Origin: a virus
Length of the DNA stretch: 64,000 nt
Strand: one strand, 5' to 3'
Virus record (IMG/VR): IMGVR_UViG_3300045988_089740
Shown here: positions 1,125 to 63,574 of the stretch, in pieces
Layout: each line of letters starts with the position of its first letter
How positions within the stretch are numbered: the first letter of the stretch is position 1
Notes under the pieces: generated by a model
Databases searched by the model: none
The model's input: only the letters and a program-made list of their open reading frames with translations
What the model was told of the DNA's origin: nothing
Made by a program: the position numbers and the translations under genes

Positions 1125-1227
1125 CCTGGATCACAGGCAGACAGAGTAAGCACAAAGCTGAAATCAGTAAAGATACAAGTAAATGCATAACCTTTCCGGA
1201 ATGGATAAATATAAAGGAACAAAAACA

Positions 1228-2247
1228 ATGGATAAAGAAATTGTTGCAAATTTTGAGAATTTATATCGTTCTTACAAGAAGGTTAAAAGCGGTAAAAAAT
1301 TTAACTCAGGAACTGCAAGGTTTTCTAATTTATCTCTTGAAGGCATTCACCTTCTAAAAGAACAGTTGGAAAGCCAAACGTATACCATAAATCCATATAA
1401 TAAGTTTCAAATCCACGAGCCAAAAGAACGTACAATAGAATCATGTGCATTCAAGGATAAAGTAGTGCAGAGATGCTTTTCCGATTATGTTCTGACTCCG
1501 AAGCTTGAAAAAATTCTGATTAAATGGAATACCGCTGGACAACAGGGAAAAGGACAACATATGGCAATGGACGGTTTAAAGGAGCAGATGTTGGATTTCT
1601 ATGAAAAGAATGGAATAAATGGATGGATTGTAAAATGTGATATTCATAAATATTTTTACAGCATAGATCATGAAATAATGAAAGACGTACTTGACTACTA
1701 TTTTGATGATGATTTTGCAATCTGGCTGAATCATTTATTTATTGATAGCACAGGAAATCCAGGACTACCATTAGGGAACCAGGTCAACCTGAAATATGCA
1801 TTGCTACTACTTCATTCGCTAGATCAGATGATAACGATTGAGTTTGGAAATCCATATTATGGACGATATAACGATGATTTTTATGTGTTGTGCAAAACAA
1901 AAGACATCGCCAGAGAAATTCTTGAAGCAATTCGAATGATGGTTAAAAGTCTCGGGCTGGAATTGAACCCAAAATCGCAAATTGTACCGTTCCGAATGGG
2001 ACTGTGTTATCTTGGATTCCACCATTACGTGACTGATGAGGGGAAATATATCAGAAAATTACGTGGTGACAGAAAAAGAAATACTCAGAAAAAGGTTCGT
2101 AGATGGGTTCGTGCAGTAAATGAAGAAAAGATGCCAGTGGAAAAATTCAACGAAAAATATGGAGCATGTAGGAACCATATGCTTCATGGAAACTGTATTA
2201 AATTATGCCACAGTATGGATTTGGAAATTGAAAGGAGAATGAAGTGA
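1228..2247 (+). CDS. DGR reverse transcriptase
   Basis: RT motifs present: KERTIESCAFKDKVVQ, LPLGNQVN (DGR-type GNxxxQ-like), YGRYNDDFYVL (YxDD box). The ORF opens at 1183 but the ATG at 1228 gives the typical MDKEI N-terminus. Confidence 0.85.
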   Translation: MDKEIVANFENLYRSYKKVKSGKKFNSGTARFSNLSLEGIHLLKEQLESQTYTINPYNKFQIHEPKERTIESCAFKDKVVQRCFSDYVLTPKLEKILIKWNTAGQQGKGQHMAMDGLKEQMLDFYEKNGINGWIVKCDIHKYFYSIDHEIMKDVLDYYFDDDFAIWLNHLFIDSTGNPGLPLGNQVNLKYALLLLHSLDQMITIEFGNPYYGRYNDDFYVLCKTKDIAREILEAIRMMVKSLGLELNPKSQIVPFRMGLCYLGFHHYVTDEGKYIRKLRGDRKRNTQKKVRRWVRAVNEEKMPVEKFNEKYGACRNHMLHGNCIKLCHSMDLEIERRMK

Positions 2248-6132: not shown

Positions 6133-6143
6133 GAGGACGCAAA

Positions 6144-9955: not shown

Positions 9956-10434
9956 GAGAAATTCTTTTCAAGGCAAAGCGGATTGATAATGGCGAATGGG
10001 TTGAGGGATGTTATGTGACATCTGATGGTAAATCTTTTATTTGTATGGATATAGTAGAACATTATTGTGTTATTGCACTTAGATGGTTCGAAATTGATCC
10101 AGAAACCATCTGCCAGTTCACGGGACTTTGCGACAAGAACGGGAAGAAAATTTGGGAAAATGACATTTTGATGTGTCATGGAACCCCAGAAGACCTTGTA
10201 AAAGCGGTATTTGGAGAATTTGGTGTAAGAGATATTGAAACCGGATCCATAGTAGATAAAGTTATCGGATGGCATTACGAAGTTGTCCCAACAGATGCAA
10301 TCAGTAAGTGCGAACCATTCTGTTGGTCAATGCCCCTGACAGAATATTATATCGACAGGTGCGAAATGGAAGTAGTTGACAACCCAGAATTATTACAGGA
10401 GGAATGGATTAATGGCATGTGCAAAGAAATGTGA
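9952..10434 (+). CDS. YopX-family protein
   Basis: MREILFKAKRIDNGEWVEG...QFTGLCDKNGKKIWENDIL matches the YopX pattern. Confidence 0.7.
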   Translation: MREILFKAKRIDNGEWVEGCYVTSDGKSFICMDIVEHYCVIALRWFEIDPETICQFTGLCDKNGKKIWENDILMCHGTPEDLVKAVFGEFGVRDIETGSIVDKVIGWHYEVVPTDAISKCEPFCWSMPLTEYYIDRCEMEVVDNPELLQEEWINGMCKEM

Positions 10435-15805: not shown

Positions 15806-17530
15806 ATGAACGTTTATCGCACTAGAGAAATACTGAAGACTTGCAGTATTTTCGATCTAAAATTAAAGGTGGCGTTTTACGCAAGAGTAAGCACAGAATC
15901 AGAAGACCAACAAGTTTCCATCCATCACCAGGATGAATATTACAGAAACTTCATTGCTCAAAATAGAAACTGGGTATTTGTTGGGGCGTACATTGACAAT
16001 GGAATATCGGGAATACGAACTGAGAAAAGAGACGAATTTCAACGTATGATGGCAGACGCCAAAGCTGGGAAAATTGATATGATCGTAACGAAAGAAATTA
16101 CCAGGTTTGCGAGAAATACCTTAGACAGCATAAAATATACAAGAGAATTACTGATGTATGGCGTATGCGTATGGTTTCAAAACGACAACATCAATACGAT
16201 TGACGAAGATAGTGAATTAAGACTTACCATAATGTCCGGAATTGCCCAAGATGAATCAAGAAAACTCTCCAATCGAATAAAATTCGGACATGCGCAGTCA
16301 ATAAAAAATGGGGTAGTCCTTGGATCCCGAATATACGGGTACATCAAGAAAGACGGAAAGCTTACGATCGACCCCAAAACAGCTCCGATGATAAAAGAAA
16401 TATTCGAAAAGTATTCTACGGGAGAATGGTCCACATCCGCCATTGAGAAATATCTATACAAAAAAGGATATCGAAATTACAAAGGCGGAAAACTCAGCCG
16501 AGATAATATCAAAAAGATAATCAAGAATCCGAAATACAAAGGCTATTATTGCGGCGGAAAAGTAAAAATTGTCGATATGTTCACTAAAAAGCAAGAGTTT
16601 TTGCCAGAGGACGAATGGACAATGTACAAAGATGACGGGAACCATGTTCCGCAGATTGTAGATGAATCCGTATGGGATAAGGCAAATGTCATTATGCAAA
16701 CACGGAGCGATGCGATCAAATCCCACAGAACGTCTTTCAAACAAAATAATTTATTCACTGGATATATCTTTTGCGGTAATGATGGAGCACCGTACTGGAT
16801 GAAGCAGCACACTATAAGAGGGCGTGAAGATGCAAGATGGGTATGTAGCTATCGTATAAAAAACGGAGCGCAAAGCTGTAACTCTTTTGGGATACGTGAG
16901 AGAGAATTAAGGGTGATGCTTGCAGACCTTATCAATAAATCCGGGGATATCCAAACAGCTATTGAAAAATATATAAGCTTGGTTGAAAAGAACATAGACT
17001 TCAGCAACGATGGGGCTGAGATAAGCCGACTTAAAAACATGATTCTCCAGATAGAGAAAAAGAAAGACAAGCTTCTTGACCTGAATCTGGATGGAATCAT
17101 AACAAACTCTGAATACATTGAAAAAAGTGAAAAATTCAAGGATGAAATTGAAAGCATAAACAATAAACTTTCCGAACTGGAATCAAAAGAAGAAGCCAGC
17201 AAAGATTTTCATTTGAAATTAAAAGAAATCGGTATGATATTAAACGATCTACAAGGAGTTTGCCCAGAAGACATCACCAAAACGGTTCTGGGAGAATTTT
17301 TGGACAAAATATTAATAAATCCAAAGGGCCCACAGGAGTGCGAAATTTTGTTCTTTTTAAAGACCGGAGATGTAAAAAAAAAGTCAATAACCGAGCGGGA
17401 TAAACCGGGCTGTTCTGAATATTTTTTTTTAAATAAGTTCTCAGAACGACACGCCGTATTTTACAGGAAAATCAACTATGTGGATGGATGCGAAAAGGAA
17501 TTTAACTACACTTACGCATTTGCAATCTAA
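15806..17530 (+). CDS. Large serine recombinase (phage integrase type)
   Basis: N-terminal resolvase domain (VAFYARVSTESEDQ, IDMIVTKEITRFARN), recombinase domain, Cys-containing zinc-ribbon region and coiled coil; 574 aa. Confidence 0.9.
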   Translation: MNVYRTREILKTCSIFDLKLKVAFYARVSTESEDQQVSIHHQDEYYRNFIAQNRNWVFVGAYIDNGISGIRTEKRDEFQRMMADAKAGKIDMIVTKEITRFARNTLDSIKYTRELLMYGVCVWFQNDNINTIDEDSELRLTIMSGIAQDESRKLSNRIKFGHAQSIKNGVVLGSRIYGYIKKDGKLTIDPKTAPMIKEIFEKYSTGEWSTSAIEKYLYKKGYRNYKGGKLSRDNIKKIIKNPKYKGYYCGGKVKIVDMFTKKQEFLPEDEWTMYKDDGNHVPQIVDESVWDKANVIMQTRSDAIKSHRTSFKQNNLFTGYIFCGNDGAPYWMKQHTIRGREDARWVCSYRIKNGAQSCNSFGIRERELRVMLADLINKSGDIQTAIEKYISLVEKNIDFSNDGAEISRLKNMILQIEKKKDKLLDLNLDGIITNSEYIEKSEKFKDEIESINNKLSELESKEEASKDFHLKLKEIGMILNDLQGVCPEDITKTVLGEFLDKILINPKGPQECEILFFLKTGDVKKKSITERDKPGCSEYFFLNKFSERHAVFYRKINYVDGCEKEFNYTYAFAI

Positions 17531-32389: not shown

Positions 32390-32554
32390 ATGAATCAAGT
32401 ATTTATATTTCTAGTGATATGTGGAGCGGTAGTAGTATGGTTTCTGCTTTACAAATTATTTCAGCCACTAGGTAAATTATTGAATCACATTGGCAGAAAT
32501 GCTATTGATGAGTTAAATAAAGACGAAAGTCAAAAAGAGGAGGACAAAAAATGA
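32390..32554 (+). CDS. small single-pass membrane protein
   Basis: MNQVFIFLVICGAVVVWFLLYKLF...; ATGA overlap with the SPFH gene. Confidence 0.5.
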   Translation: MNQVFIFLVICGAVVVWFLLYKLFQPLGKLLNHIGRNAIDELNKDESQKEEDKK

Positions 32555-33504
32555 AGAAAGGACTTTTAGGTGGAATTGGATTAGCTGTTGCGATCATTGC
32601 AGGGCTTATATGCGTTGCGAAGTGTAGCGTAAGGGTTCCGGCTGGTTACATTGCAGTAGAGTACAAAATGAACGGAGGGATTTCCAAGAATGTACTTACA
32701 CAGGGATGGCATTTGATTTCACCTACAGTAAAAACTTCACTGTATTCTGTTGGAATCGAACAGTCTTATCTTACATCTGAGGATAAAGGCGATTCTCCAA
32801 AAGACGAAAGTTTTAAGACGCCAACAGCAGATGGCAAATCTCTTTTAGTTGATTTGGAATTTTCGTACAAATTCGACCAAAACAGAGTAACCGATGTATT
32901 TACTCAGTTTAAAGGTCAATCCGGGGAATCCGTGAAAAATACCTTTATTAAACCCAAGATGAAAGCATGGACACAGGAAGTAACTGCAAAGTATCCAGTA
33001 ACAGATGTTTTCGGTGATAAGCGTCAGGAACTGAATGAAGCACTTGACGAATATCTTAAACAGAAGTTTGAACCATACGGAATTATTATTGATACAGTAA
33101 ACTTTACTTCTATTTCCACCGATGATGAAACACAGGCTGCAATCCAAAAGAAAGTAAATGCACAGCAAGAGCTTGAATTGGCCAACATTGAAGCTAAAAC
33201 AGCCAAAGTACAAGCCGATAAAGATAAAGAAGTTGCACTGATTGCTGCTGAACAGGAAAAAGAAAGAGCAGCTATTCAGGCAGAACAAGCCAAAATTGAT
33301 GCAAAAGGCAAAGCTGAAGCTATTAAGATTAAAGCTGAAGCCGAAGCGGAAGCTAACAGAAAGATTGCAGAATCACTTACCCCTGAACTGATTGAAAAAC
33401 AGAAGATTGATAAATGGAATGGCGAGGTTCCGAAGATTCAGGGAAGCAACACTTCTACTATCGTAGACACAAGAGATATGACAGTTGATGAGAATGCTGA
33501 ATAA
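32551..33504 (+). CDS. SPFH/Band-7 (prohibitin/HflC-like) membrane protein
   Basis: N-terminal TM segment, SPFH core (VRVPAGYIAVEYKMNGG...LVDLEFSYKF...) and an Ala/Glu/Lys-rich coiled-coil tail. Confidence 0.75.
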   Translation: MKKGLLGGIGLAVAIIAGLICVAKCSVRVPAGYIAVEYKMNGGISKNVLTQGWHLISPTVKTSLYSVGIEQSYLTSEDKGDSPKDESFKTPTADGKSLLVDLEFSYKFDQNRVTDVFTQFKGQSGESVKNTFIKPKMKAWTQEVTAKYPVTDVFGDKRQELNEALDEYLKQKFEPYGIIIDTVNFTSISTDDETQAAIQKKVNAQQELELANIEAKTAKVQADKDKEVALIAAEQEKERAAIQAEQAKIDAKGKAEAIKIKAEAEAEANRKIAESLTPELIEKQKIDKWNGEVPKIQGSNTSTIVDTRDMTVDENAE

Positions 33505-39774: not shown

Positions 39775-40098
39775 ATGGACGAACAGCTTACAAGTGATCT
39801 AGCAATGTATCTGGAAGGTGATGAACAGACTGCAAGGATGATTCCTTTGGCAGTCAAAAGAGCTATTCGGTCATTCCAGAAAAAACGCAATTATCCTGAG
39901 AGTTATACGGAAGAAAACATCAATAAAGATATGGACAAATGCTATGATTGTATTTTCGATTTGGCTCTTTATTTTCTTGTGAAACAGGGAGTTGAGTTTG
40001 AAACATCTCATTCGGAAAATTCTGTAAATGCAGGATGGAACTCCGAAACAGAGATATTTGTCAATCATGGCGTTTTTCCATTTGCCAGAGGAATCTGA
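39775..40098 (+). CDS. Head-tail connector (gp6-like) protein
   Basis: 107 aa directly after the capsid gene. Confidence 0.5.
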   Translation: MDEQLTSDLAMYLEGDEQTARMIPLAVKRAIRSFQKKRNYPESYTEENINKDMDKCYDCIFDLALYFLVKQGVEFETSHSENSVNAGWNSETEIFVNHGVFPFARGI

Positions 40099-40210: not shown

Positions 40211-40522
40211 ATGGGATGTGAACAGAATTGCTTTAACGAACACCGCTTAGAAGAATTGGAAAAAGTTGTTCACGAAATGAAAGAGAAACATTCTAAACGT
40301 GACGGAATTTTTTTTGAACGTATCAATGCGCTTGAGACCAAAATCGTTCTTTACAACAATAATCTCGGACACATAAAAAAAACGGTAGATGAAATGAATG
40401 ATAATTTAAAATCCCTTATGGAAGCCCCGGCAAAACGCTACGATACGATTGTTGTTTGCGTTATCACAGCAGTAATCGGGGCTATTGTAGGGTTTGCGTT
40501 AAGCGGTATTTTTCCGGTATAA
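40211..40522 (+). CDS. XhlA-like protein (coiled coil plus C-terminal TM)
   Basis: 103 aa. N-terminal coiled coil and C-terminal TM segment TIVVCVITAVIGAIVGFALSGIF. Confidence 0.45.
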   Translation: MGCEQNCFNEHRLEELEKVVHEMKEKHSKRDGIFFERINALETKIVLYNNNLGHIKKTVDEMNDNLKSLMEAPAKRYDTIVVCVITAVIGAIVGFALSGIFPV

Positions 40523-40560
40523 CAAGCAATTCCACTTGTAAGGGAGGATGGTGGAATTAT

Positions 40561-40815
40561 ATGAATTATACAGACTTTTCAGAAGATGAAAGAAAGTTTT
40601 ATCTAAGTGAATCCGGGTTTGATTCCCGAGAAAAAGAGTTTTTCCGGTTGAGAGTTTATGAGGAAAAGACGTTGTTTGAAACAGCAGAGATTATGGGGTA
40701 TAGTCCTAGAACCATTGACCGTATAAACCGAAAAGTAAAAAAGAAGATTGTTAAAGTTGCCCCGATGTACTATCGGGGCTTTTCTTTGTATCATGGCGAA
40801 AACATGGCGAAATAG
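40561..40815 (+). CDS. sigma-70 region-4-like HTH protein
   Basis: SREKEFFRLRVYEEKTLFETAEIMGYSPRTIDRINRKVKKKI. ATG 40561 follows AAGGGAGGA. Confidence 0.55.
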   Translation: MNYTDFSEDERKFYLSESGFDSREKEFFRLRVYEEKTLFETAEIMGYSPRTIDRINRKVKKKIVKVAPMYYRGFSLYHGENMAK

Positions 40816-40891
40816 TGTCGTTTAAATACTTAAGTTTCTCCCCTATAATATAAGTATAGAGAAAAGCTTACAGAGATGGGAGGAACACACT

Positions 40892-41392
40892 ATGGCATTT
40901 TATCCATATTATCCACAACCATTGAACCCATATCCACAAACACCGGTACAACCGTATCAAGATAGATTGGCACAGTTGCAGAACAACTACCAACAGGCAA
41001 TGCCTTATGGACAGACACAAATACAACAACCGGTACAACAGATGCCACAGGTTGCCATGCTTCCGGGACAGATGGTTGATGGTATTGACACTGTAAAAGC
41101 AAAGGATGTGGATATGACCGGGAATCCTGTCTATTATCCAAAAACAGATGGTACAGAAATATATAAAAAGCAACTACAGGCAGACGGAAAAAGCAGAATT
41201 TTTGTTTACCGGATTATTGATCCAGACGAACAGCAGCAACCAAAGCCCGAAGAAAAACCGATTGACATAGAAGCTATGTTTAATCAGCTGCGGAACGATG
41301 TTTGTTCTGAGATTTCTGAAATAAAGAGCATGTTCCCAACGCAGATGCCGGGAACACCGGAACCCAAACAGAATGGAGGGAAACAGAGATGA
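40892..41392 (+). CDS. P/Q/Y-rich low-complexity protein with a small globular C-terminal half
   Basis: MAFYPYYPQPLNPYPQTPVQPYQDRLAQLQNNYQQAMPYGQTQIQQPVQQMPQ... Confidence 0.6.
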   Translation: MAFYPYYPQPLNPYPQTPVQPYQDRLAQLQNNYQQAMPYGQTQIQQPVQQMPQVAMLPGQMVDGIDTVKAKDVDMTGNPVYYPKTDGTEIYKKQLQADGKSRIFVYRIIDPDEQQQPKPEEKPIDIEAMFNQLRNDVCSEISEIKSMFPTQMPGTPEPKQNGGKQR

Positions 41393-41634
41393 GCTTCAAC
41401 CCAAACGCCATGATGAAAATGCAAGTTGAAAGAATGATTTCTCAGAGGTTCGGAAGTGTTGATAACATGATGAACGATATGAGTAAATTTGCAGGAAATA
41501 ATCCAACATTGAAAAATGCTTTGGATTTGTATAAAAAAGGTGACACAAACCAGTTACATCAAATACAGCAAAATGTATTTAATGAAAAACACTTATCACC
41601 AGACGGAATTATCCAGAAATTCCTTGGATTATAA
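41389..41634 (+). CDS. hypothetical protein (Met/Asn-rich)
   Basis: 81-aa ORF with ATGA overlap. Confidence 0.55.
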   Translation: MSFNPNAMMKMQVERMISQRFGSVDNMMNDMSKFAGNNPTLKNALDLYKKGDTNQLHQIQQNVFNEKHLSPDGIIQKFLGL

Positions 41635-41730
41635 CACTTCCCCATGATTGGGTGATTTAAAATCGCTACAATTTGGGATGACAGCCGCGGATGTCTCCTA
41701 TTGTAAATAATATTTAAGGAGACTAAAAAC

Positions 41731-42543
41731 ATGATGAATGGTTCTAATTACAGTCTTAGCGACATTGCAGCTGCTACAGGCTCTAATAACCGTGCCAATG
41801 ACATGTGGGGCGGCGATGGTTTTTCACTTATTTGGCTCGTGCTGATCTTCGCAATCTTCGGATGGGGAGGTTTCGGCGGCTGGGGCGGTGGCTTCGGCGG
41901 TAATGGTGGAAATGGTGCAAACGGTGCCGGTTTCCAAGGATGGGCTACACGTGCCGATATCAATGAGAGCTTTGCTCTTAACGATATCCAGAACGGTATC
42001 AGAGGTATTCAGCAGGGTATCTGCGACAGCACATATGCGCTCAACAATACCATGCAGAGCGGTTTCAACGGCATGAACGTTGGAATGCTTCAGGGCTTCA
42101 ATGGCGTTCAGCAGGCAATCAATGCTGATACTGTAGCCGGTATGCAGAATACCAATGCATTACAGTCTCAGTTAGCAAACTGCTGTTGTGAAACCAGGGA
42201 AGCTATCCAGGGCATCAACTACAACCTGGCTACCAACACTTGTGCTCTTCAGAACACAATGAACAACAACACCAGAGATCTTCTGGAAAATCAGAACAGC
42301 AACACGAGAGCAATCCTTGATTTCCTGACAAATGATAAGATTGCAACATTACAGGCAGAGAACTCTGACCTGAAACGTGCTGCATCTCAGGATCGCCAGA
42401 GTGCACTGCTTACAACTGCAATGGCTTCTCAGACACAGCAGCTCATTAATGCAATCAATCCGGCAGCTATCCCGGCATACGTTGTTCCGAATCCAAACAC
42501 CTACTACGGTGGATGCAACGGATACAGCAACGGTTGCTGCTAA
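41731..42543 (+). CDS. Gly-rich membrane-anchored Q/N-rich protein with Cys-rich C-terminus
   Basis: TM segment FSLIWLVLIFAIFGW, then GGFGGWGGGFGGNGGNGANGAG, a long Q/N-rich helical region containing CCC, and a C-terminal GGCNGYSNGCC. Confidence 0.65.
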   Translation: MMNGSNYSLSDIAAATGSNNRANDMWGGDGFSLIWLVLIFAIFGWGGFGGWGGGFGGNGGNGANGAGFQGWATRADINESFALNDIQNGIRGIQQGICDSTYALNNTMQSGFNGMNVGMLQGFNGVQQAINADTVAGMQNTNALQSQLANCCCETREAIQGINYNLATNTCALQNTMNNNTRDLLENQNSNTRAILDFLTNDKIATLQAENSDLKRAASQDRQSALLTTAMASQTQQLINAINPAAIPAYVVPNPNTYYGGCNGYSNGCC

Positions 42544-42620
42544 GTAACTCACCCTTAGAGGTTGACTAATTCTAAGAGGTGGGTTGTGGCTCACCTCTTA
42601 TTTGATTGAGAGGTAGAAGT

Positions 42621-43046
42621 ATGAGTTGTAAAAACGTTTGTAAGCTCTGCAATCGTCTTGTGATAAGCCAAGCTGTTGCATTTACTGGTGGTAATCTTGT
42701 GATTACACTTCCAGCAGGTAGTTATAACAATGGTGAAAAATATTGCATTGTGATTGCACAGAGCATACCAGAAACCACTACGATTAACGCTCCGGTGATG
42801 ATTCAAATAGGAACGGGAACAACCCTGTATCCATTACAGAATCGTTGCTGTGCACAGGTTACGGCTTGTGGCGTAAGAACCAGAACGAAGTACGCAACCA
42901 GAGTAGCCACAAATGCAACCGGTGGAGTGTTCAAGATGTTAGGGAATCCGGCTTGTAGTCCGAGTAACAATTTGACAGCAATTAATGGTACAGCCCCAAC
43001 AGCAGATACACCTGTTACACAGGCTGTTAGAAAGGGGGCACTGTAA
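42621..43046 (+). CDS. Cys-rich beta-type protein
   Basis: MSCKNVCKLCNRL...RCCAQVTACG...; ATG 42621 follows GAGAGGTAGAAG. The ORF opens at 42606. Confidence 0.6.
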   Translation: MSCKNVCKLCNRLVISQAVAFTGGNLVITLPAGSYNNGEKYCIVIAQSIPETTTINAPVMIQIGTGTTLYPLQNRCCAQVTACGVRTRTKYATRVATNATGGVFKMLGNPACSPSNNLTAINGTAPTADTPVTQAVRKGAL

Positions 43047-43672
43047 TGCATAAAGTTGCAATGGAAATGGGAAAATGGGCTATGGAAAAAGCCAAGACAC
43101 ATGGCTTCGATAATCTCAGTGCTCAAGACTGGGACGATCTGAAGGACTGCATGGAATCCGTAAAGTGTGCGATTTGTGCAGATAAAGATTACAGAATCGT
43201 AGAAGCTATGGACGAATGCGAACAGGAAGAGAAGTATCTTGGACGCATGGGATATGACAGGTATCGTTACGCAAACGGCAGATTCGCCCCGAAAGGCAAA
43301 GGAAGTCGTATGGGATATAAACCATATCTGTACATGGAAGATGATGACTGGATGGACGAGTATCTGAACAATCCAGAGTTCGAACGTAATATATACCGCA
43401 TGGGTTATCATCCAGACCGTAGTGATATGAGGATGGATGGAATGAACCATAAGCAGTCCAGATACGGTGAAACCTACGACAGATACAGTGAAAATCGCAG
43501 GCATTACCACGATTCCAATGATACAGAATCCAAGAGAAAAATGGACGAGTCCATGAAAGAGTATACACAAGATGTCATCCGCACGATGTCTGAAATGTGG
43601 TCGGATGCAGACGCGAATCTCAAACAGCAGATAAGAACTGATCTGACCCGTCTGATACAGCAGATGAATTAA
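43046..43672 (+). CDS. Tyr/Arg/Asp/Met-rich protein with three RMGY repeats
   Basis: LGRMGYDRYRY, GSRMGYKPYLY, IYRMGYHPDRS. The strong antisense ORF 42803..43675 is treated as a shadow. Confidence 0.6.
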   Translation: MHKVAMEMGKWAMEKAKTHGFDNLSAQDWDDLKDCMESVKCAICADKDYRIVEAMDECEQEEKYLGRMGYDRYRYANGRFAPKGKGSRMGYKPYLYMEDDDWMDEYLNNPEFERNIYRMGYHPDRSDMRMDGMNHKQSRYGETYDRYSENRRHYHDSNDTESKRKMDESMKEYTQDVIRTMSEMWSDADANLKQQIRTDLTRLIQQMN

Positions 43673-43690
43673 CAAATAAGAATTAAATTT

Positions 43691-43725
43691 AGTCCTTGTT
43701 GCAGAAATGTGACAGGGACTTTTTA
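43691..43725 (+). terminator. intrinsic terminator closing the low-complexity gene block
   Basis: agtccttg/cagggact stem followed by TTTTT. Confidence 0.6.
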
Positions 43726-43741
43726 ATTACGGAGATTGATT

Positions 43742-44068
43742 ATGGAGAAATGCAAAATAAATGTTCTTGGAACGGATTACAGAATTATTCCGAAAGAATT
43801 AAAAAATGCAGATGTTGATGGTTATACAGACAATACATCAAAAGAAATTGTCATTAGAATAGACAATGCGAATAATGTTGGAGATTTTGATTTCTTACAG
43901 AAAAAACAGTTGAGGCATGAAATTATTCATGCATTCTTGTCGGAAAGCGGATTGCAGTGTAATTGGCAACATACAGAACAGTTCGGACATGACGAAACTA
44001 CTGTTGACTGGTTTGCAATTCAATCTCCAAAGATTTTTGAAGTATTCAAAGAGCTTGATTTAATTTGA
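43742..44068 (+). CDS. HExxH putative zinc metalloprotease-like protein
   Basis: QLRHEIIHAFL motif. Confidence 0.5.
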   Translation: MEKCKINVLGTDYRIIPKELKNADVDGYTDNTSKEIVIRIDNANNVGDFDFLQKKQLRHEIIHAFLSESGLQCNWQHTEQFGHDETTVDWFAIQSPKIFEVFKELDLI

Positions 44069-44086
44069 AAAGGATGGTGATAAACC

Positions 44087-44473
44087 ATGCTAAGACAATT
44101 TTACATGAACGGGGACTTATGGCGAGTTCACTTTGTTTCGCCTCATGATAGTGTTTTGTTTGACCGTACAGGGCAGAGGACACTTGCGGTATCAGATTAT
44201 TCTACAATGACAATTTCGATCGCAAATAATTTGTACGGAGAACTTCTGAACCGTGTGTTTATCCATGAATTAGGGCATTGCGTGATGTTCAGTTACGGCC
44301 TATTGCCAGAACTTCACCGCATGGTTAAGAAACGGTATTGGGTGGATGCAGAGGAATTTGTGTGCAATATGCTTGCCGATTACGGATGCTTTGTAATTGG
44401 CGTTGCAAAAGATGTTTTAGGAAACCGGTTCACATATGTAGCTCCTGTTGGGGCAGAAAGGATGATTGCATAG
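44087..44473 (+). CDS. HExxH putative zinc metalloprotease-like protein
   Basis: VFIHELGHCVM motif. Confidence 0.5.
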   Translation: MLRQFYMNGDLWRVHFVSPHDSVLFDRTGQRTLAVSDYSTMTISIANNLYGELLNRVFIHELGHCVMFSYGLLPELHRMVKKRYWVDAEEFVCNMLADYGCFVIGVAKDVLGNRFTYVAPVGAERMIA

Positions 44474-44716
44474 ATGGCAAAAGCAGAAAACACAGTTATT
44501 TTTGATGGAATCAAGTACAATCCCGGTGATGAATTGCCAGATTTAGGCAGCTGGGTATGTACAGGGGCAAAAGGCATGGTTCGTGATTACGAAGGCCTGT
44601 CAAAGGACGTATCAAAGCTCCCACATTATGTACAGAGCGGTTCTTCGGCGTTGTGCCTTGATACTTCTGAATTATACGAATATCACAAACCTACCGACAC
44701 ATGGTACAAACTGTAA
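44474..44716 (+). CDS. hypothetical protein
   Basis: 80-aa ORF abutting the previous stop. Confidence 0.5.
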   Translation: MAKAENTVIFDGIKYNPGDELPDLGSWVCTGAKGMVRDYEGLSKDVSKLPHYVQSGSSALCLDTSELYEYHKPTDTWYKL

Positions 44717-44727
44717 AGGAGAAACGC

Positions 44728-46350
44728 ATGGCATTAACAGCAAAAAAAGTATATGCAATTTTAAAACGCCAGATTTCTGATATGGAAGCAAAGTTAAACA
44801 GCCCTGTAAGGTACAGAGGTACAGTCGCAACCGCTGATTTGCTTCCATTAAACCCGGATATCGGAGATATGTACAATATCGAGTCTAAATCTATTTACGG
44901 CGAAGCAGGAATGAATGTGGCATGGAACGGCGTAGTTTGGGACACTATGGGCGCTCCGATTGATATGTCGCTGTATTTCACAAAAGAAGAAGCAGAGGCG
45001 GTAATACAAAGATTAGTTACGGAATATTTTGAAAAGAATCCGGTCAAGCCCGGAGCCACGGCAGAACAGGTACAGCAGATCGAGCAGAACAAGACAGACA
45101 TTGCTTCACTGAAAACGGAAACTGGTTCACTAAAGGAAGATATATCCAACAAAATTACAAAGTTCTATGCATCGAATCAGGGTGAAACTCACATCACTGA
45201 TTCCGACAATGGAAAGATTCAAGATATGATGCTGTATGGAAAGAGTGAGCAGAACCAATACAAAGGGATAAATTTACTTCCTACTGGCATTAGTTATGGG
45301 GAAATAATAGAAGTTTCGATTCCAAAAGGAACACGCATTTTTTGGGCTACAGACGGTACACCTGCTATAGGCGGTAATTTCAAGTTCTATAATGAAGATA
45401 AAACTCAAGTGATGTGGTTCGGAGTTGATGCTGGCAAGACTGCAATGACAATGACAACATATATTGATGCTAAATATATGGAGTTCCTTATTAACGAAAC
45501 CAGCTTAGTTAAAATATGTTTAGGCATTGGAGATGATCCAGTATATGAACCCTACACAGGCGGTCAGCCGTCACCCTCTCCTGATTATCCACAGGAGATT
45601 AAGAGTGTGGTGAATCCGACAGTGAAGGTGTCAAACGAAGATGGAACAAAATCTCAGACCGTCACTCTCCTAGATACATTGAATGCAATCCCTGTAAGTT
45701 CAGGTGGTAACGTCACAATCGATGGACAGCAGTATGTTGCGGATTATGTGGATGTGGAGCGTGGGAAAATAGTTAGAAACGTTGAAAATGTAACATTTAA
45801 TGGCGCAGAGAATGAAAACTGGGAACTGTGGAATGCGGACAAAGAAAAAATATGGTCATTTATGTTTGTAAATTCATTAAAAACATTTACAAACGAAAGT
45901 GTTTCAAAATGCAACAGATTTGAGTTTAATGTTAATGAAAGCATTGATAGAACGTTTTGGCTATGTAATCCTAGTGGAATGCCATCATTACAGATTAAAA
46001 ATAGAATAATTGGAAAAGACATAACTGCATTTAAATCGTGGTTATCAAACAATCCAATCAACGTAATTTATCCTTTGCGAATACCGATTGAAGAAGAACT
46101 TACAGCAGAACATGCGCAAGCGTTGAAAGAACTTGCTACTTACTATCCAGTAACGAATATTTCAATTGGTTCAGAACAGCTTGACGGATATACAGTATTC
46201 AACTATCCGATTTCAATGAAAAACGGATGGGATTATGTTAAGAAACAGCTCAATGACAATCGTGATTACATCTATGACATGGATATACAATCAGCAGAAG
46301 CCTATGTCAACAGTGAATATGCAGTAGCATTAACAGAATTGGAGGTATGA
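44728..46350 (+). CDS. putative tail fibre / receptor-binding protein
   Basis: 540 aa. N-terminus YRGTVATADLLPLNPDIGDMYNI...WNGVVWDTMG is typical of fibre N-domains. Followed by an XkdX-like gene. ATG 44728 follows AAAGGAGAA. Confidence 0.5.
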   Translation: MALTAKKVYAILKRQISDMEAKLNSPVRYRGTVATADLLPLNPDIGDMYNIESKSIYGEAGMNVAWNGVVWDTMGAPIDMSLYFTKEEAEAVIQRLVTEYFEKNPVKPGATAEQVQQIEQNKTDIASLKTETGSLKEDISNKITKFYASNQGETHITDSDNGKIQDMMLYGKSEQNQYKGINLLPTGISYGEIIEVSIPKGTRIFWATDGTPAIGGNFKFYNEDKTQVMWFGVDAGKTAMTMTTYIDAKYMEFLINETSLVKICLGIGDDPVYEPYTGGQPSPSPDYPQEIKSVVNPTVKVSNEDGTKSQTVTLLDTLNAIPVSSGGNVTIDGQQYVADYVDVERGKIVRNVENVTFNGAENENWELWNADKEKIWSFMFVNSLKTFTNESVSKCNRFEFNVNESIDRTFWLCNPSGMPSLQIKNRIIGKDITAFKSWLSNNPINVIYPLRIPIEEELTAEHAQALKELATYYPVTNISIGSEQLDGYTVFNYPISMKNGWDYVKKQLNDNRDYIYDMDIQSAEAYVNSEYAVALTELEV

Positions 46351-46352
46351 TT

Positions 46353-46517
46353 ATGTTATATAGAACATTACTGAAACTTAAAGAAAGAAATGGACTTACA
46401 GATGATTTAAAGAATAAGATTGATATTTTCTTTGCAACTGGCAGGATTACCGAGGAACAGTATAATGAGCTGATGGATGTTAATAAGGAAGAAGAACCGA
46501 AAGCAGAAAATAATTAA
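46353..46517 (+). CDS. XkdX-like small protein
   Basis: 54 aa with GRITEEQYNELM as in the XkdX family. Below the track cutoff. Confidence 0.5.
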   Translation: MLYRTLLKLKERNGLTDDLKNKIDIFFATGRITEEQYNELMDVNKEEEPKAENN

Positions 46518-46809
46518 CTAAAGCAGATGGCTCTGGCAATAGCAATAGATATAAGGAAATCCCTGTATTTACAAGGGTTTACGGCTCATGGACTTTTGGG
46601 ACGAAAGCTTTAGTGAATTAATTTTAAGCAAAAATCGAATAAAAGATACCCATTTCACATGGGGCGTGTTATAATAAACACAACACAATAAAAAGGGAGC
46701 TGAACTCCCACCTACCAAGTAAAAAGTTCAGCTCCAAGCACCACGAAGGGTACGGGTATATTATAGCACAGTACCTTCCCTTTGTGAACCCAAAAGGAGG
46801 GTATTTTTT

Positions 46810-46956
46810 ATGAGAGAACAGTTTATTGACGGGTTCATGGCAGAGCTGAACGGAGAAGTGCCAGATGAATATTTGCGAAAAATCACAAAAGAAAAAGTTG
46901 AAAATATGAAGGTTTTAACAGATGCTGAAAAACAGTATATTTTAAGAAGTGAATAA
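46810..46956 (+). CDS. small hypothetical protein
   Basis: 48 aa with SD AAAGGAGGG 10 nt upstream; ends at the bidirectional terminator. Confidence 0.35.
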   Translation: MREQFIDGFMAELNGEVPDEYLRKITKEKVENMKVLTDAEKQYILRSE

Positions 46957-46960
46957 AAAA

Positions 46961-46989
46961 AGAAGGGGAGTTTTCTCTCTCCCTTCTTT
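46961..46989. terminator. bidirectional terminator between convergent genes
   Basis: agaaggggag/ctcccttct stem flanked by A6 and T3 runs. Confidence 0.6.
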
Positions 46990-46997
46990 AGTACGGA

Positions 46998-47237
46998 TTA
47001 CAGATACTCACCAGATTCAGCATCGGTGATCTCGATTGGATTCTCAATGTCGTAGGATTCCAGATCGTTACTATCAAACAGCTTGTAAACCAGGACTACC
47101 TCTTTTCCATCCTCACGTGTTGCAATTCCTGAAAGTGTTTGTGTATCAGGATCGTGTGTGAGCTGATGAGCAATAGTATACTTGATGCCTTTGATAGCTA
47201 CAGTTTCATTGAGTAAATCGTTAAGCTGATTATTCAT
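46998..47237 (-). CDS. hypothetical protein (lone antisense gene in the structural region)
   Basis: MNNQLNDLLNETVAIKG...; ATG 47237 is preceded by AAAGGAGG. The ORF opens at 47279. Confidence 0.55.
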   Translation of the reverse strand: MNNQLNDLLNETVAIKGIKYTIAHQLTHDPDTQTLSGIATREDGKEVVLVYKLFDSNDLESYDIENPIEITDAESGEYL

Positions 47238-47424
47238 ATAAAAACCTCCTTTTATAATATAGCTTAAATTATACATCATAGATTACCAACACACAATAAA
47301 AAAGCCCCCAGAATCTGAGGAAAAACTGGGTACTGGAAGATTTGAAATCTGGGGCTATGCCGTTCCCAAATTTCTATATAAAAATAACACAAAAAAAATA
47401 ATCTTGTCAATGGAGGAAGAATAT

Positions 47425-48960: not shown

Positions 48961-49254
48961 ATGGATCAGATCATGAACTATGTGAAACCGGAACTTCTGG
49001 TTGTAGCTGTAGTCCTGTATTTTGTAGGCGTATTTCTCAAACAGGCTGAAACCGTAGCTGACAAATACATTCCTGGAATCCTTGGACTTCTGGGTGTGGT
49101 TATTTGTGGAATCTATGTTTTCGCTACATCTACAGTCACAGGCGGTCAGGAAGTTGCAATGGCAATCTTTACCGCAATCACACAAGGTATTCTTGTTGCA
49201 GGGCTGAGCACTTATGTGAATCAGGTCATTAAACAAGTAAGCAAAGAAGAGTAG
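48961..49254 (+). CDS. holin-like three-TM membrane protein
   Basis: 97 aa with three hydrophobic segments and a charged C-terminus (KQVSKEE). Confidence 0.45.
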   Translation: MDQIMNYVKPELLVVAVVLYFVGVFLKQAETVADKYIPGILGLLGVVICGIYVFATSTVTGGQEVAMAIFTAITQGILVAGLSTYVNQVIKQVSKEE

Positions 49255-60205: not shown

Positions 60206-63200
60206 TTGAGGTATGTTTCCAGCAGATTTAAAACTGAACAGAATAACGACAATAGGAACTATCTGAAATATGCGGATATCACATTGACAGATGGAACGGT
60301 TCTCAATCTTACCAATACGGATTTTTGGTCAAATGGAATGAAATTTGAAGATTCAGTATCCGATGATAGCGCTTTTACAATTGGATCTGCGAATATAAAC
60401 ACAGTAAATCTGTCAATTAATAACTTTGATGAAAAGTATACGGATTACGATTTCACAAATGCAGAAGTGATCTGTTATGTTGGACTTGAAGTGGAACCAA
60501 CATCCGGAACTGAAAAAGAAATAGAAAAAATCCGAATTTGCACCATGACCGTGGTTGATACACCATATCAGGATACTACGATCATTGAACTAACATGCGA
60601 GGATAATATGCGAAAATTTGATCGTGATTATTCTGAGAGTAAGCTCAAGTATCCGGCGACACGTCGGCAAATAATCCAAGACGCATGTAATGTATGTGGA
60701 GTAACACTGGATACATTATCGTTCGATCAAGATTCTTATCAAATCGTAACAAGGCCGGATGATGATGCATTAACTTTTCGTCAGGTGTTAGCATGGGTAT
60801 GCCAGATCGGATGTCAGTATGCCAGATGCGATAGATATGGCAGACTGACTATAAAATGGTACGATACGGAAATTGTTGATGCGAATAGAATTGAAATTAA
60901 TTCTACGAGCAAATTTACCCCAAATTTAGATGATGTGGTTATAACTGGCGTAAGGGTAACAGAATATATTGAGGCTACATCCGATGATAAAACCGCAAGT
61001 TCATACTTGTATGGAAATGAAGGATACGTCCTGGAAATCAGCGAAAATAAACTGATCCCACAGGGAACCGGTGAGACTGTAGCTGCAATGATCGGCGAAA
61101 AATGCGTTGGAATGTCGTTTCGCCCATTTGAAACGCAGTGCTTAACAGACATATCTATTGAAGCCGGGGACGCTGTTTTAATAACGGACAGAAAAGGTAA
61201 TAAATATAAAAGCTTTTTAACGAATGTTGTACTACAACCCGGAGTATTCGAACAAATTTCTTGCAATGCTGAGAGCGCAGCTAGAAACAGTTCAAAACAA
61301 TATTCTTTGATTACGCAAACAGTTGTTGATGCTAGAAAGTCAGTGCAAAAGGAAAAAGCGCAACGAGAGCTTGCACTTGAAGAATTTGAGAAAAGGCTTG
61401 ACAAATCATCAGGGGTTTTTACCACTATCGAAACTCAAGAGGACGGGAGTAAAATTTTTTATTTGCATGATAAGCCCAAATTAAGTGAATCGCAGGGAAT
61501 ATGGCGGATGACGGCGGAAGCCTGGGGCGTATCAAACGACGGCGGAAATACCTGGAACGGCGGAATGACTGTTGATGGAGACGCTATAGTTCGTATTTTG
61601 GAAGCGGTTGGAGTTAACGCAAATTGGATCAATGCCGGAGCCATTACCGTAAAAGACGCAGAAGGGAATCTTCTATTCTCTGTTGACATGGATACAAAAT
61701 CGGTATATATCAGCGGAAATGTGCAGATTGGCGGCGGAAAAACATTTGACGATACATTGAAAGAGTTTGCTGCATCTGCAAAAAATATGACCATTCAGCT
61801 GAGCAATGAATATCAGGGCATTCCTGTTAATTCTGATGGGAATTATATCAACTTTCCAGAATGCTCAACTCAGGTTACGGTGATGTACGGCGCACAGGAT
61901 ATCACGGAGAACTGTTCGTACACTATAACCGAATCTCAGAATATCTCGGGATCCTGGGACGAAGTTGAACACACGTATACAGTTGAAAGCTTAACTGCCG
62001 ACAGTGGCTGGATTGATATAAGAGCTACTTATCTTGAGAACCTGTCAGTATCGAAACGATTCACGATAGCTAAGCAGTATGCCGGAGAACAGGGTACAGC
62101 CGGAAGAACATATTTTATAAATGCCGATGCTGACATTTTGCTGATGGGGGCTGACAAGAAGATCACTCCGAATGTTCTGAACTTGAGGCCTTACTATAGA
62201 GATGGTCAGGAAGATGCTAAAAACTTTTATGCCTGGTGGACTATCGAAAAAAGCGTTGATAACGGCTCTTCCTGGGAAGATATAAGCACATACAGCACCT
62301 CGATGAAGCTGATCCAGATTCAGCTGAACGCGCTGTCTCTTGAAGCACATGACATGATAAGGGCCAGCGCTTATGCCGATAAAGAAAAAACTATACTATG
62401 TGATCAGCAGACGTTCCCGGTAGCACTTGACGTTTCTGCTCTGTCTCAGAAAGATATTGTAGAAATTCTGTCTAATAACGGAGCTTGGAAAGGACTATAC
62501 TATCTGAACAATGAGCTGTATGTTTCTTTCAATGCGGCGCTCGGAGGAATACTGACACTCGGTGGACAGAACAACGGGAACGGGCTTCTGATCCTTCTTG
62601 ACGACGAAGGGTCGGAGATAGGCCGGATGTCGTCCGGAGGAATGTCATTTCGAAATTCTGATAACAACATAGTCATAAGAATTAATAAGAGCGGAATGTT
62701 CTTCTATGATTCGACCGGTCAAAAAAGAAAAGTGCTTACTGACAGTTCCGGCATCACTATGTATACGGATTATACAGACGCAAACAACTGGAAAGCCATA
62801 AAAATCGGTAAGTACGGAATTTATGCAGCAGAAAAGAGCGGCGGAGCGGAAGATCTCTGGATGGAGGGTGATACCAGCCACCAATGGGATGGATATATTC
62901 TAAGATTTTTAAATGGTGCAGTTCGTTTAAATGCAAATGCAGTATATACAGACGGTTGTTCGATGGGAAAGAACCTGACTACTTCGGGAACTCTTTCAGT
63001 ATCTGGTGACACTGGCCTTAAAGGAGATGCTTACGTAGCTGGAAACTTTTCGTTCAGAGACTATAAAGAAGAAGAAGCCAATACAAGCACAAGAAGAAGA
63101 CCCGTATCATCGGCAAGCGCCGCATTGAACAGGGTAGCTTATCTGTCATCGGCAACACGATCAAATAAAGCCGCATTGACGGTATCGGCCCAGTGGGGTT

Positions 63201-63574
63201 CGAGTAACTATACTACAAACACTTTATATAACGATTCTGCTTCCGATATCCGATTAAAAGAGAATGTTTTAGACTGCGAAATTAATGCTCTTGATGCGGT
63301 CTGCAAAATGCCGGTATGCTCATTCGACTGGAAAGAAACTGGCGTCCATCAGCCGCTCGGACTTGTTGCAGATGATATTGAAAAAATAGATCCGTTACTG
63401 GCACTAGGCGGTGGTGAGAACGAAGACGGAAGCATGAATGTTAAGCAGATTGACAGGCTTCTTCTGACCGAATATGCAATTAAAGCAATCCAGGAACTGT
63501 CAGCTACAGTAAAAGAGCAGAGCTGCAAGATTAGAAAATTGGAGGGAAAATTGGATGGAATTAAAGGGAATTGA
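60206..63574 (+). CDS. Tail-associated fibre protein with C-terminal S74 intramolecular chaperone domain
   Basis: 1122 aa. C-terminal SDIRLKENV...LGLVADDIEKIDPLL is the S74 auto-cleaving chaperone signature. TTG start after GGAGGTGAG. Confidence 0.75.
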   Translation: MRYVSSRFKTEQNNDNRNYLKYADITLTDGTVLNLTNTDFWSNGMKFEDSVSDDSAFTIGSANINTVNLSINNFDEKYTDYDFTNAEVICYVGLEVEPTSGTEKEIEKIRICTMTVVDTPYQDTTIIELTCEDNMRKFDRDYSESKLKYPATRRQIIQDACNVCGVTLDTLSFDQDSYQIVTRPDDDALTFRQVLAWVCQIGCQYARCDRYGRLTIKWYDTEIVDANRIEINSTSKFTPNLDDVVITGVRVTEYIEATSDDKTASSYLYGNEGYVLEISENKLIPQGTGETVAAMIGEKCVGMSFRPFETQCLTDISIEAGDAVLITDRKGNKYKSFLTNVVLQPGVFEQISCNAESAARNSSKQYSLITQTVVDARKSVQKEKAQRELALEEFEKRLDKSSGVFTTIETQEDGSKIFYLHDKPKLSESQGIWRMTAEAWGVSNDGGNTWNGGMTVDGDAIVRILEAVGVNANWINAGAITVKDAEGNLLFSVDMDTKSVYISGNVQIGGGKTFDDTLKEFAASAKNMTIQLSNEYQGIPVNSDGNYINFPECSTQVTVMYGAQDITENCSYTITESQNISGSWDEVEHTYTVESLTADSGWIDIRATYLENLSVSKRFTIAKQYAGEQGTAGRTYFINADADILLMGADKKITPNVLNLRPYYRDGQEDAKNFYAWWTIEKSVDNGSSWEDISTYSTSMKLIQIQLNALSLEAHDMIRASAYADKEKTILCDQQTFPVALDVSALSQKDIVEILSNNGAWKGLYYLNNELYVSFNAALGGILTLGGQNNGNGLLILLDDEGSEIGRMSSGGMSFRNSDNNIVIRINKSGMFFYDSTGQKRKVLTDSSGITMYTDYTDANNWKAIKIGKYGIYAAEKSGGAEDLWMEGDTSHQWDGYILRFLNGAVRLNANAVYTDGCSMGKNLTTSGTLSVSGDTGLKGDAYVAGNFSFRDYKEEEANTSTRRRPVSSASAALNRVAYLSSATRSNKAALTVSAQWGSSNYTTNTLYNDSASDIRLKENVLDCEINALDAVCKMPVCSFDWKETGVHQPLGLVADDIEKIDPLLALGGGENEDGSMNVKQIDRLLLTEYAIKAIQELSATVKEQSCKIRKLEGKLDGIKGN

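Follow-up and report, generated by a model that had tools for sequence, protein, structure and literature searches.

A mobile accessory cassette of gut-anaerobe phages lodged among the structural genes of an IMG/VR phage

Within IMG/VR virus record IMGVR_UViG_3300045988_089740, of which we analyzed a stretch of 64,000 nucleotides (hereafter the window), the region at 40,211–44,473 carries nine consecutive genes, p1 to p9, that are one copy of a horizontally mobile accessory cassette of gut-anaerobe phages and not head–tail joining machinery. Our leading interpretation, which we regard as plausible and still short of probable, is that this self-regulated cassette builds a membrane-anchored rod-and-knob complex that would have its effect at the host envelope, either on the timing of lysis or on exclusion. 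The original prediction, made from the letters of the window, had instead read the region as a seven-gene, terminator-bounded block of spore-coat-like proteins under its own regulator, inserted between connector and neck genes.

Gene order, position, and control of the cassette

Loci for comparison were gathered through relatives of p5, using tblastn and genome scans in gut phage records and in metagenome-assembled genomes of Lachnospiraceae, Oscillospiraceae, and other Clostridia, and gene order was established from iterative hidden Markov models (HMMs) and all-vs-all clustering of the fetched loci. The cassette was found in >45 other loci, with the common order (p1)–p2–papain-like peptidase in some–p3–p4–p5–slot–p7–HExxH, in which the slot is the gene position taken by p6 in the window (Table 1). 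This slot is occupied by the p6 family in 13 loci and by a beta protein of ~143 amino acids (aa) with its own CC motif in 25; similarly, 27–28 loci have p4, while 12 others carry phrog_22984, an analogous family of ~70 aa. The papain-like gene, which is absent from the window, often lies between the helix-turn-helix (HTH) gene and p3 in distant copies, for instance at 5975–6355 in locus L041, at 6840–7229 in locus L036, and in 17 other loci; its product of ~126 aa has a Cys/His pattern like that of papain (phrog_3754, unknown function).

The position of the cassette differs widely between phages. In Dulem virus 35 it is flanked by minor capsid and scaffold genes; in bajarodcaudo virus 5 it closes the rightward genes, directly behind a holin and a lysis peptidase; in Butyrivibrio virus Ceridwen it comes after the lysin gene and a terminator; and in the Clostridium perfringens phages CPD1 and HMD-PC1 it stands between KilA/anti-repressor and Gam/recombinase genes, with the holin upstream. 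Dulem virus 39 encodes a homolog of the gene called "connector" in the window, directly followed by holins and tail genes, and carries the cassette 39 kb away beside an integrase; the head–neck placement is therefore specific to the window lineage. This placement is common to loci L014/L015 and L020, in which p5 is only 38–51% identical, and in the close relatives of the window (contigs of 78–80 kb) p1–p9 stand at the same place. In the window lineage, L014/L015, L020, and Dulem virus 35, the p1 gene accompanied the cassette on its move into the structural region, and holin or lysis genes are immediate neighbors in bajarodcaudo virus 5, Ceridwen, the crAss-like phage cr109_1, and the L041 group. 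Foreign genes were also seen inside the cassette: an HNH gene separates p4 from p5 in CPD1, and in a lineage of 60-kb phages an integrase lies between p2 and p3 and AntA with small open reading frames (ORFs) between p5 and the slot gene.

All seven ORFs of the original prediction were recovered, every one on the plus strand. A hairpin does stand where the block had been said to end (43,691–43,720), but the unit extends to 44,473 and not to 43,725, because the HExxH genes p8 and p9 travel with the cassette according to comparative synteny. Likewise, structural genes do flank the region, with portal (phrog_64), scaffold-like, decoration-like, and major capsid protein (Phage_cap_E) genes upstream and a tail-terminator-like gene at 48,538 downstream, but the labels "connector" (39,775–40,098) and "neck" (47,404 onward) are positional only; no match in Pfam or PHROGs was obtained for the "connector" (107 aa) or for the first "neck" genes. 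The idea of a self-contained cassette rather than ordinary head–tail joining genes is borne out by its own HTH gene, promoter-like site, hairpins, and shifting position. The block is indeed very common, but it occurs at many positions and without an assigned function, rather than at this one position as a known structural module.

The cassette also appears to bring its own regulation. The p2 protein matches Pfam Sigma70_r4 (PF04545) at E 1.6e-5 with 24.8 bits, against a cut-off of 24.1, and TIGR02937 aligns with it over model positions 116–163 of 165, i.e., over region 4 alone. Because region 2 is missing (none was aligned by Pfam or NCBIfam), p2 is, judging from its sequence, a small DNA-binding HTH protein and not a sigma factor, the match being marginal but consistent. 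The HTH identity given in the original prediction thus stands, and its length of 85 aa becomes 84 aa when counted from the ATG.

Several hairpins accompany these genes. An equivalent of the hairpin at the end of p2 was found just 3′ of p2 in Dulem virus 35 (L002, 7103–7134), and the one between p5 and p6 is near base-for-base the same in L004–L008 and in L014/L015 (8850–8877 and 8848–8875, respectively, with one G–U change), where p5 is ~50% identical. Such conservation points either to a functional element, be it an RNA or a terminator, or to a recent gene conversion. Locus L014 also has a hairpin at the same place after p7 (10038–10065). The conserved hairpins matched no Rfam family, and terminator-like sites in the region numbered 17 compared to 8.8 expected after shuffling, an excess of ~2×. 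Together, the HTH protein, the promoter-like site, and the internal and terminal hairpins, some of them recurring in distant copies, agree with the earlier claim of an own regulator and fit a cassette in control of its own expression, which would explain its tolerance of many genomic positions. The hairpins would split it into p1–p2, p3–p4–p5, p6–p7, and p8–p9. As in a moron, a promoter-like site and hairpins, both at the level of consensus matches, go together with a position that varies among phages.

Table 1. Features of the cassette and of its surroundings in the window, with the recurrence of the cassette genes among the compared loci
Feature	Position	Strand	Description	Basis	Recurrence
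p1	40211..40522	+	103 aa, XhlA-like, coiled coil (N-terminal) and transmembrane anchor (C-terminal)	phrog_937, hydrophobicity	8–13 loci
p2	40561..40815	+	sigma-70 region-4-type HTH, likely cassette regulator	Pfam, TIGR02937	25–29 loci, 5′ of p3
Hairpin in p2	40759..40779	+	hairpin and T-run within non-conserved 3′ end of p2	pattern scan	
Promoter-like site	40821..40849	+	TTTAAA-17-TATAAT, 5′ of p3	consensus match only	
p3	40892..41392	+	166 aa, core gene; P/Q/Y-rich N-terminus, small conserved domain, helical C-terminal tail	phrog_21718	45–46 loci, directly 5′ of p4/p5
p4	41389..41634	+	81 aa, core gene; helical, Met/Asn/Gln-rich	synteny, CPD1 homolog	about 40 loci (p4 or analogous ~70-aa family)
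p5	41731..42543	+	270 aa, core gene; anchor, helical rod, Cys-rich tail	phrog_16490	45–48 loci
p5–p6 hairpin	42573..42600	+	hairpin between p5 and p6	pattern scan	
p6	42621..43046	+	141 aa, Cys-rich, all-beta; variable slot 3′ of p5	AF2, 4,547 homologs	38 loci (slot protein)
p7	43046..43672	+	208 aa, Arg/Tyr/Asp/Met-rich disordered middle between helical ends, 3× RMGY	sequence, synteny	28–29 loci (p7 relative), 3′ of slot gene
Post-p7 hairpin	43691..43720	+	terminator-like hairpin and T-run 3′ of p7	pattern scan	
p8	43742..44068	+	108 aa, zincin-like, HExxH = HEIIH; GGAG precedes ATG	phrog_1233	20–24 loci (HExxH gene of p8/p9 family), 3′ of p7
p9	44087..44473	+	128 aa, zincin-like, HExxH = HELGH, p8 paralog	phrog_1233, phrog_13742	
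Reverse transcriptase	1183..2247	+	354 aa, near left end of window	RVT_1, E 3e-11	
Large serine recombinase	15806..17530	+		Resolvase, Recombinase, Zn_ribbon_recom	
SPFH/Band 7 protein	32551..33504	+	just 5′ of large terminase	E 7e-21	
Holin	48961..49254	+	three hydrophobic segments	Phage_holin_5_2, E 1.3e-27	
Tail fiber	60206..63574	+	1,122 aa, C-terminal intramolecular chaperone domain	Peptidase_S74, E 2e-8	

Core protein p5, the slot behind it, and the remaining products

The p5 protein matches phrog_16490 (E 4.6e-67) and belongs to a family of >7,980 clusters at 90% identity, which is a lower bound; at 50% identity, an exhaustive profile search gave 2,697 clusters at a threshold of E ≤ 1e-3, of which 1,365 remained at E ≤ 1e-10. 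Among the best-scoring cluster representatives, nearly all are stand-alone proteins of 230–300 aa. They share a layout of acidic N-tail, hydrophobic anchor, Gly/Trp/Phe-rich linker, ~160-residue helical rod, and Pro/Tyr/Cys-rich tail ending in GC..GCC, and C98, CCC151–153, C171, and this terminal GC..GCC are invariant at ~35% identity. An AlphaFold2 (AF2) model of p5, with a predicted local distance difference test score (pLDDT) of 46, was used for secondary structure only and places an anchor helix at 32–42 behind a short N-terminal helix, followed by a disordered Gly-rich linker and helices at 83–122 and 140–242. This model points to an extended rod, probably one that requires oligomerization. 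Regular N@d-type heptads formed by the "NT" motifs of p5 were considered and rejected, their spacing being insufficiently regular, and a PDB sequence search with p5 gave no significant match. Two metagenome contigs (P0048 and P0050) fuse the first ~170 residues of p5 to a fiber-like region with an SGNH/GDSL hydrolase; these are singletons with abrupt junctions, and we treat them as probable chimeric assemblies rather than real fusions.

Across the p5 family, the N-tail carries a mean charge of +1.1/−3.5, while the flank downstream of the anchor is near neutral. Under the positive-inside rule, and by analogy with phage coat proteins that translocate their N-tails, this slightly favors an N-out/C-in orientation of p5 with a cytoplasmic rod. 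Transmembrane-strength hydrophobic segments were detected in only two cassette proteins, p1 (79–97) and p5 (~31–49), and neither signal peptide nor lipobox was found in any cassette protein from sequence and hydrophobicity.

Most carriers of the family are phages of monoderm Clostridia. In addition, the p5 HMM (Z = 1000) recognized proteins of Bacteroides uniformis phage C3_41T2LP (305 aa, E 8e-41), cr109_1 (327 aa, E 1.5e-34), and CPD1 (E 2.8e-34), all three of which retain the anchor and the Gly/Trp linker as well as CCC and the Pro/Tyr/Cys tail. The match in Ceridwen is weaker (tblastn E 3e-6, over about half of the protein), with gene order conserved. Downstream (3′) of p5, C3_41T2LP encodes a small CC beta protein, a protein combining beta structure with a coiled coil, an Arg/Tyr/Asp-rich protein of 77 aa, and a PolyVal metallopeptidase (HHELGH), the last being present in this Bacteroides phage only and not in cr109_1. 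In both phages a small beta protein comes after p5, and short Arg/Tyr/Asp-rich analogs of p7 are present. In cr109_1, the p5 homolog is preceded by a holin, a LysB/FtsL-like protein, and an Arg/Tyr/Asp-rich protein, and the genes on either side of the copy encode a tail protein and a virion structural protein. In-frame stops under table 11 were seen in the cassette region of cr109_1 (locus L056), consistent with stop-codon reassignment. Depositors label the crAss-like and Bacteroides p5 homologs "outer capsid protein/viral fiber", and overall the family spans phages annotated as sipho-, myo-, podo-, and crAss-like.

The slot protein p6 has 4,547 homologs, none of them carrying a Pfam domain or a name, and is marked by a conserved N-terminal C3-x3-C7-x2-C10 (CxxxCxxC) cluster and an internal CC. 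It is predicted by AF2 to form an all-beta sandwich (pLDDT 64, core 72–84). No significant match to this model was found in the PDB with Foldseek, the best being a phage baseplate/fiber chain at E 0.03; in BFVD, its own family aside, it matched C-terminal parts of tail fiber, collagen-repeat, and adhesin-stalk proteins (probability ~1, TMq 0.40–0.46). The p6 family and the ~143-aa family that takes its place elsewhere are unrelated by hhalign (probability <1%), and PDB sequence searches with p6 and with the alternative-slot profile returned nothing significant. Matches to CsuA/B (alternative-slot profile, E 0.07) and Baculo_PEP_C (E 0.019) were treated as noise.

The skewed compositions that had drawn attention to the block are real relative to the other ORFs of the window. 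For instance, p3 contains 15% Q and 13% P (window background 3.8% and 3.1%), p5 13% G, 14% N, and 3% C (background 6.4% G and 1.6% C), and p6 5.7% C against the same 1.6%, while p4 is at 10% M and 12% N and p7 at 7.7% Y, 8.7% R, 11.5% D, and 9% M. Searches of Pfam, NCBIfam, PADLOC, and PDB sequences gave no match for p3–p7. In PHROGs, families of unknown function take in p3 (phrog_21718, E 7e-17) and p5 directly and p4, p7, and the slot protein by way of relatives, and CPD1 encodes homologs of both p3 (E 6e-20) and p4 (E 3e-11).

For p1, the description as XhlA-like holds in part: it matches phrog_937 "hemolysin" (E 8.4e-14) and phrog_1193 (E 8.6e-5) and has an XhlA-type architecture, but the Pfam XhlA model was absent among matches at E ≤ 1. 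No holin or endolysin adjoins p1 in the window. The holin lies 8.4 kb downstream among the tail genes, between tail-terminator-like and tail-tube-like genes, and lysis genes are therefore scattered here, close relatives being alike; in other lineages a holin is adjacent.

The two zincin-like proteins match phrog_1233 (p8, E 1.8e-20; p9, E 6e-8), and p9 also matches phrog_13742 "peptidase" (E 1e-3). Their HE.xH motif is conserved over 28 members of the HExxH family, and p8 is conserved along with the cassette in close relatives. Among curated peptidases, the hits of p8/p9 remained below threshold (Peptidase_M78, E 0.17; DUF6782, E 0.21), and a p9 HMM matched the annotated PolyVal metallopeptidase of the Bacteroides phage copy weakly (E 1e-3). 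An HExxH helix in a domain of ~110–130 aa is also what MPTase-PolyVal (PMC5512222) and M78/ImmA display, and it is the equivalent gene of the Bacteroides copy that bears the PolyVal annotation. Unlike those domains, however, p8 and p9 stand alone rather than within a polyvalent protein, and both the Pfam scores, which are sub-threshold, and the PolyVal link are weak. Phage zincin domains have been proposed to process phage proteins or to target host proteins (PMC5512222).

Candidate roles of the cassette

From these observations we infer a complex, its topology, and a role. p5 would be a single-pass protein of the cytoplasmic membrane in infected or lysogenic cells, where it would form coiled-coil oligomers with a rod of ~20–25 nm, if extended, and a Cys-rich tip. 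This tip may be capped by the small beta-sandwich slot protein, i.e., p6 here and an unrelated beta protein elsewhere, and the conserved CC/CCC motifs of both partners could join them by disulfides or a shared metal site. Since they lack export signals, p3, p4, and p7 are taken to be cytoplasmic partners or assembly factors, among which the Met-rich p4 may chaperone a hydrophobic or Gly-rich segment; p8 and p9 would process a cassette component or a host target. The rod is more likely to face the cytoplasm (N-out/C-in), because the N-tail of p5 is net acidic and every partner is without an export signal. The complex would serve an infection step at the level of the envelope, either the timing of lysis with XhlA and holin or the blocking of entry of superinfecting DNA. 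We prefer these two roles because an XhlA-like gene moved with the cassette and lysis neighbors are frequent, and because p1 and p5 are the sole membrane proteins and the cassette is independent of virion type.

Known lysis and exclusion systems offer partial parallels. The p1 architecture, its "hemolysin" PHROG, and the frequent location beside holin or lysin genes are shared with PBSX/SPbeta-type lysis accessories (XhlA, holin XhlB, amidase XlyA), but unlike these the block contains neither holin nor endolysin, p1 does not match Pfam XhlA, and p3–p7 have no counterpart. Similarly, the Rz i-spanin, T4 holin T with RI/RIII, and Sie2009/Imm exclusion proteins have an N-terminal anchor, a long helix, conserved Cys, and small soluble partners; they are encoded close to lysis genes or prophage ends, and they act at the envelope, as proposed for the cassette. 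However, there is no sequence or profile similarity to any of them, and the cassette has 6–9 genes compared to 1–3. For the Rz/Rz1 spanin in particular, p5 recalls the anchor-plus-coiled-coil layout in general outline, with ambiguous topology and no homology, the cassette holds no outer-membrane lipoprotein partner, and spanins have no known role in monoderm hosts, which most cassette hosts are.

Several observations weigh against this envelope interpretation. The functions of p3–p7 are without homology support, every PHROG match being to a family of unknown function, the promoter and terminator assignments are consensus matches only, and the p5 model is of low confidence. Charges on both sides of the anchor are weak, leaving the topology of p5 ambiguous. 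Variants of the p5 tail did not co-vary with the slot family, so that a specific tail–knob interface is unsupported. In addition, of the first 50 loci, only 13 had an XhlA-like gene close to the cassette, and the proximity to lysis genes may just reflect the usual hotspot for accessory genes after the lysis cassette.

The models of p5 and p6 could also describe an accessory virion fiber, with p5 as a trimeric coiled-coil stalk, the slot protein as its tip, and p3, p4, and p7 as assembly chaperones. Such a fiber would be a non-essential decoration or adhesin on heads, necks, or tails, comparable to fibritin/whiskers, Hoc, or neck passage structures. We consider it unlikely, although a number of observations point toward it: the cassette stands within the late structural operon in the window and several lineages, and between virion genes in cr109_1; a variable 549-aa gene resembling tail fibers lies just downstream; the p6 model matches fiber C-terminal domains in BFVD, with a baseplate/fiber chain as top PDB match; and p5 homologs have been deposited under a fiber label. 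The predicted p5 rod and the fiber-tip resemblance of p6 also recall T4 fibritin, reovirus sigma-1-type, and collagen-repeat fibers. In the cassette, however, stalk and knob are separate genes, the stalk is membrane-anchored, and the PDB fold matches are non-significant. A conserved N-terminal membrane-type anchor is unexpected in a fiber of a tailed virion, and the best-scoring p5 representatives, almost all stand-alone, have no virion attachment domain. Elsewhere the cassette lies among early, replication, or integrase genes, and the p5 family is not tied to one virion architecture.

Still less likely, in our judgment, is a cytoplasm-facing membrane tether that would organize replication, recombination, or assembly, with p7 binding nucleic acid. 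Replication or recombination genes neighbor the cassette in the C. perfringens phages, C3_41T2LP, and the 60-kb phages, but many copies are found in late or lysis regions. An N-terminal anchor with a long helical region is what a tether would need, and the acidic N-tail of p5, like the lack of export signals in its partners, fits the N-out/C-in orientation; on the other hand, no DNA-binding domain was detected in p5 or its partners besides the p2 HTH. The closest parallel is phi29 p16.7, which resembles p5 in its N-terminal anchor, coiled coil, and C-terminal functional end, some cassette copies being located in early or replication regions. Unlike p16.7, p5 is 2× as long and has a Cys-rich rather than DNA-binding end, and no homology to p16.7 or p1 was found in Pfam or PDB.

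Alternatively, there may be no single system at all, and unrelated accessory genes may have gathered in one recombination hotspot, their linkage being merely inherited. The insertions of HNH, integrase, and AntA with small ORFs, which break the order without apparent harm, would be expected in this case, as would the exchange of the slot gene between unrelated families and the absence of the XhlA, p2, or HExxH genes from many copies each. Nevertheless, the p3–p4–p5–slot–p7 order is kept down to ~25–35% p5 identity, across host phyla and unrelated phages, and such persistence is hard to explain without functional coupling; start and stop codons also overlap or abut at p3/p4 and p6/p7, which suggests co-translation. 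We therefore rate this explanation as improbable. A defense system was rejected as well, PADLOC having yielded coiled-coil noise only (best E 0.0015, GajA against p1).

Least credible of all, with hardly any weight left to it, is the layer of the original prediction, cross-linked like a spore coat or exosporium and made or modified on the host spore. It was suggested by proteins rich in Cys, Tyr, Gly, and Gln, and could further appeal to the Clostridia among the carrier hosts, to the N-terminal Cys cluster of p6, which recalls Ena connectors by resemblance only, and to the alternative slot family, which by eye is like BclA C-terminal or BxpB-type beta domains. Cys-rich, Gly-rich, and fiber-plus-knob themes are indeed common to the cassette and to BclA/BxpB, ExsY/CotY, CdeC, and Ena1A/B, but neither sequence nor fold homology links them. 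For p1–p9, no coat or exosporium family (CotH, CotJ, CotY/Z-ExsY, BclA, BxpB, CdeC, GerQ) appeared at E ≤ 1 in Pfam or NCBIfam, no cassette protein matched DUF3992 in Pfam, and searches of PDB sequences and folds gave no coat, exosporium, or Ena family. An identification of p6 as an Ena/DUF3992 protein was thus discarded, Foldseek against the PDB having returned neither Ena nor BclA, and the alternative-slot profile gave just the non-significant CsuA/B match.

The distribution of the block points the same way. Bacteroides and Butyrivibrio, including B. fibrisolvens, do not form endospores, and the core family is widespread in gut phages that include one of B. uniformis, a crAss-like phage, and, with the weaker match, one of Butyrivibrio fibrisolvens, i.e., phages of non-sporulating and of Gram-negative hosts. 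It is also present in phages isolated as lytic on C. perfringens. Given these non-sporulating hosts and the lack of coat, exosporium, or Ena homology, the analogy is untenable. The broader notion of a surface structure or fiber may still hold: remote homology and structure prediction, while yielding no coat-type match, gave a helical rod for p5 and a resemblance to fiber tip domains for p6.

Surroundings in the window and significance

Other genes of the window provide context for the phage itself. As it encodes a large serine recombinase, the phage is temperate. Its reverse transcriptase could be part of a diversity-generating retroelement or a retron/Abi-type enzyme, and its SPFH/Band 7 gene is found in at least one of four close relatives (L006). 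Directly after the cassette, the stretch at 44,474–47,300 contains an 80-aa ORF, the 549-aa protein, small ORFs, and a minus-strand 93-aa gene, and is variable among close relatives: one has a 523-aa version of the 549-aa protein, and in three the stretch is absent. The C-terminal third of the 549-aa protein matches phrog_6782 "tail fiber protein" (E 7e-14), and the stretch may code for a neck or side fiber.

A search of the literature for the cassette, the XhlA context, phage-encoded coat proteins, C. perfringens carriers, and "viral fiber" did not return a description of this module, nor proteomic data for any carrier phage. Its sequence families were already catalogued as PHROGs of unknown function; what would be new, under the best explanation, is a multi-gene version of the known autonomous phage accessory cassettes that act at the host envelope. 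The core family alone accounts for thousands of clusters in human and animal gut metagenomes, with no name, Pfam domain, or known function, and crosses the divide between Bacillota and Bacteroidota hosts. A cassette this common, conserved in order, and mobile is probably of general use to gut phages. For annotation, the lesson is that odd genes in a head–tail operon need not be virion parts and can belong to an autonomous cassette inserted there.

A bolder proposal, to which we give little credence for now, is that the cassette builds a previously undescribed structure common to phages of Gram-positive and Gram-negative gut anaerobes, in which arrayed, membrane-anchored coiled-coil rods would carry interchangeable beta-sandwich knobs joined through CC/CCC disulfide or metal bridges, with the prion-like (P/Q/Y) and Arg/Tyr/Asp-rich disordered partners as assemblers. 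If true, this would be a role new for phage modules, e.g., a lattice on the surface or inner face of the membrane that governs phage exit, the entry of rivals, or the attachment of progeny. Cultured carriers make the cassette testable, namely CPD1 and HMD-PC1 on C. perfringens, C3_41T2LP on Bacteroides, and Ceridwen on Butyrivibrio. Once identified, its role would annotate a sizeable part of the "dark matter" of the gut virome and could reveal a new way in which phages act on the host envelope.

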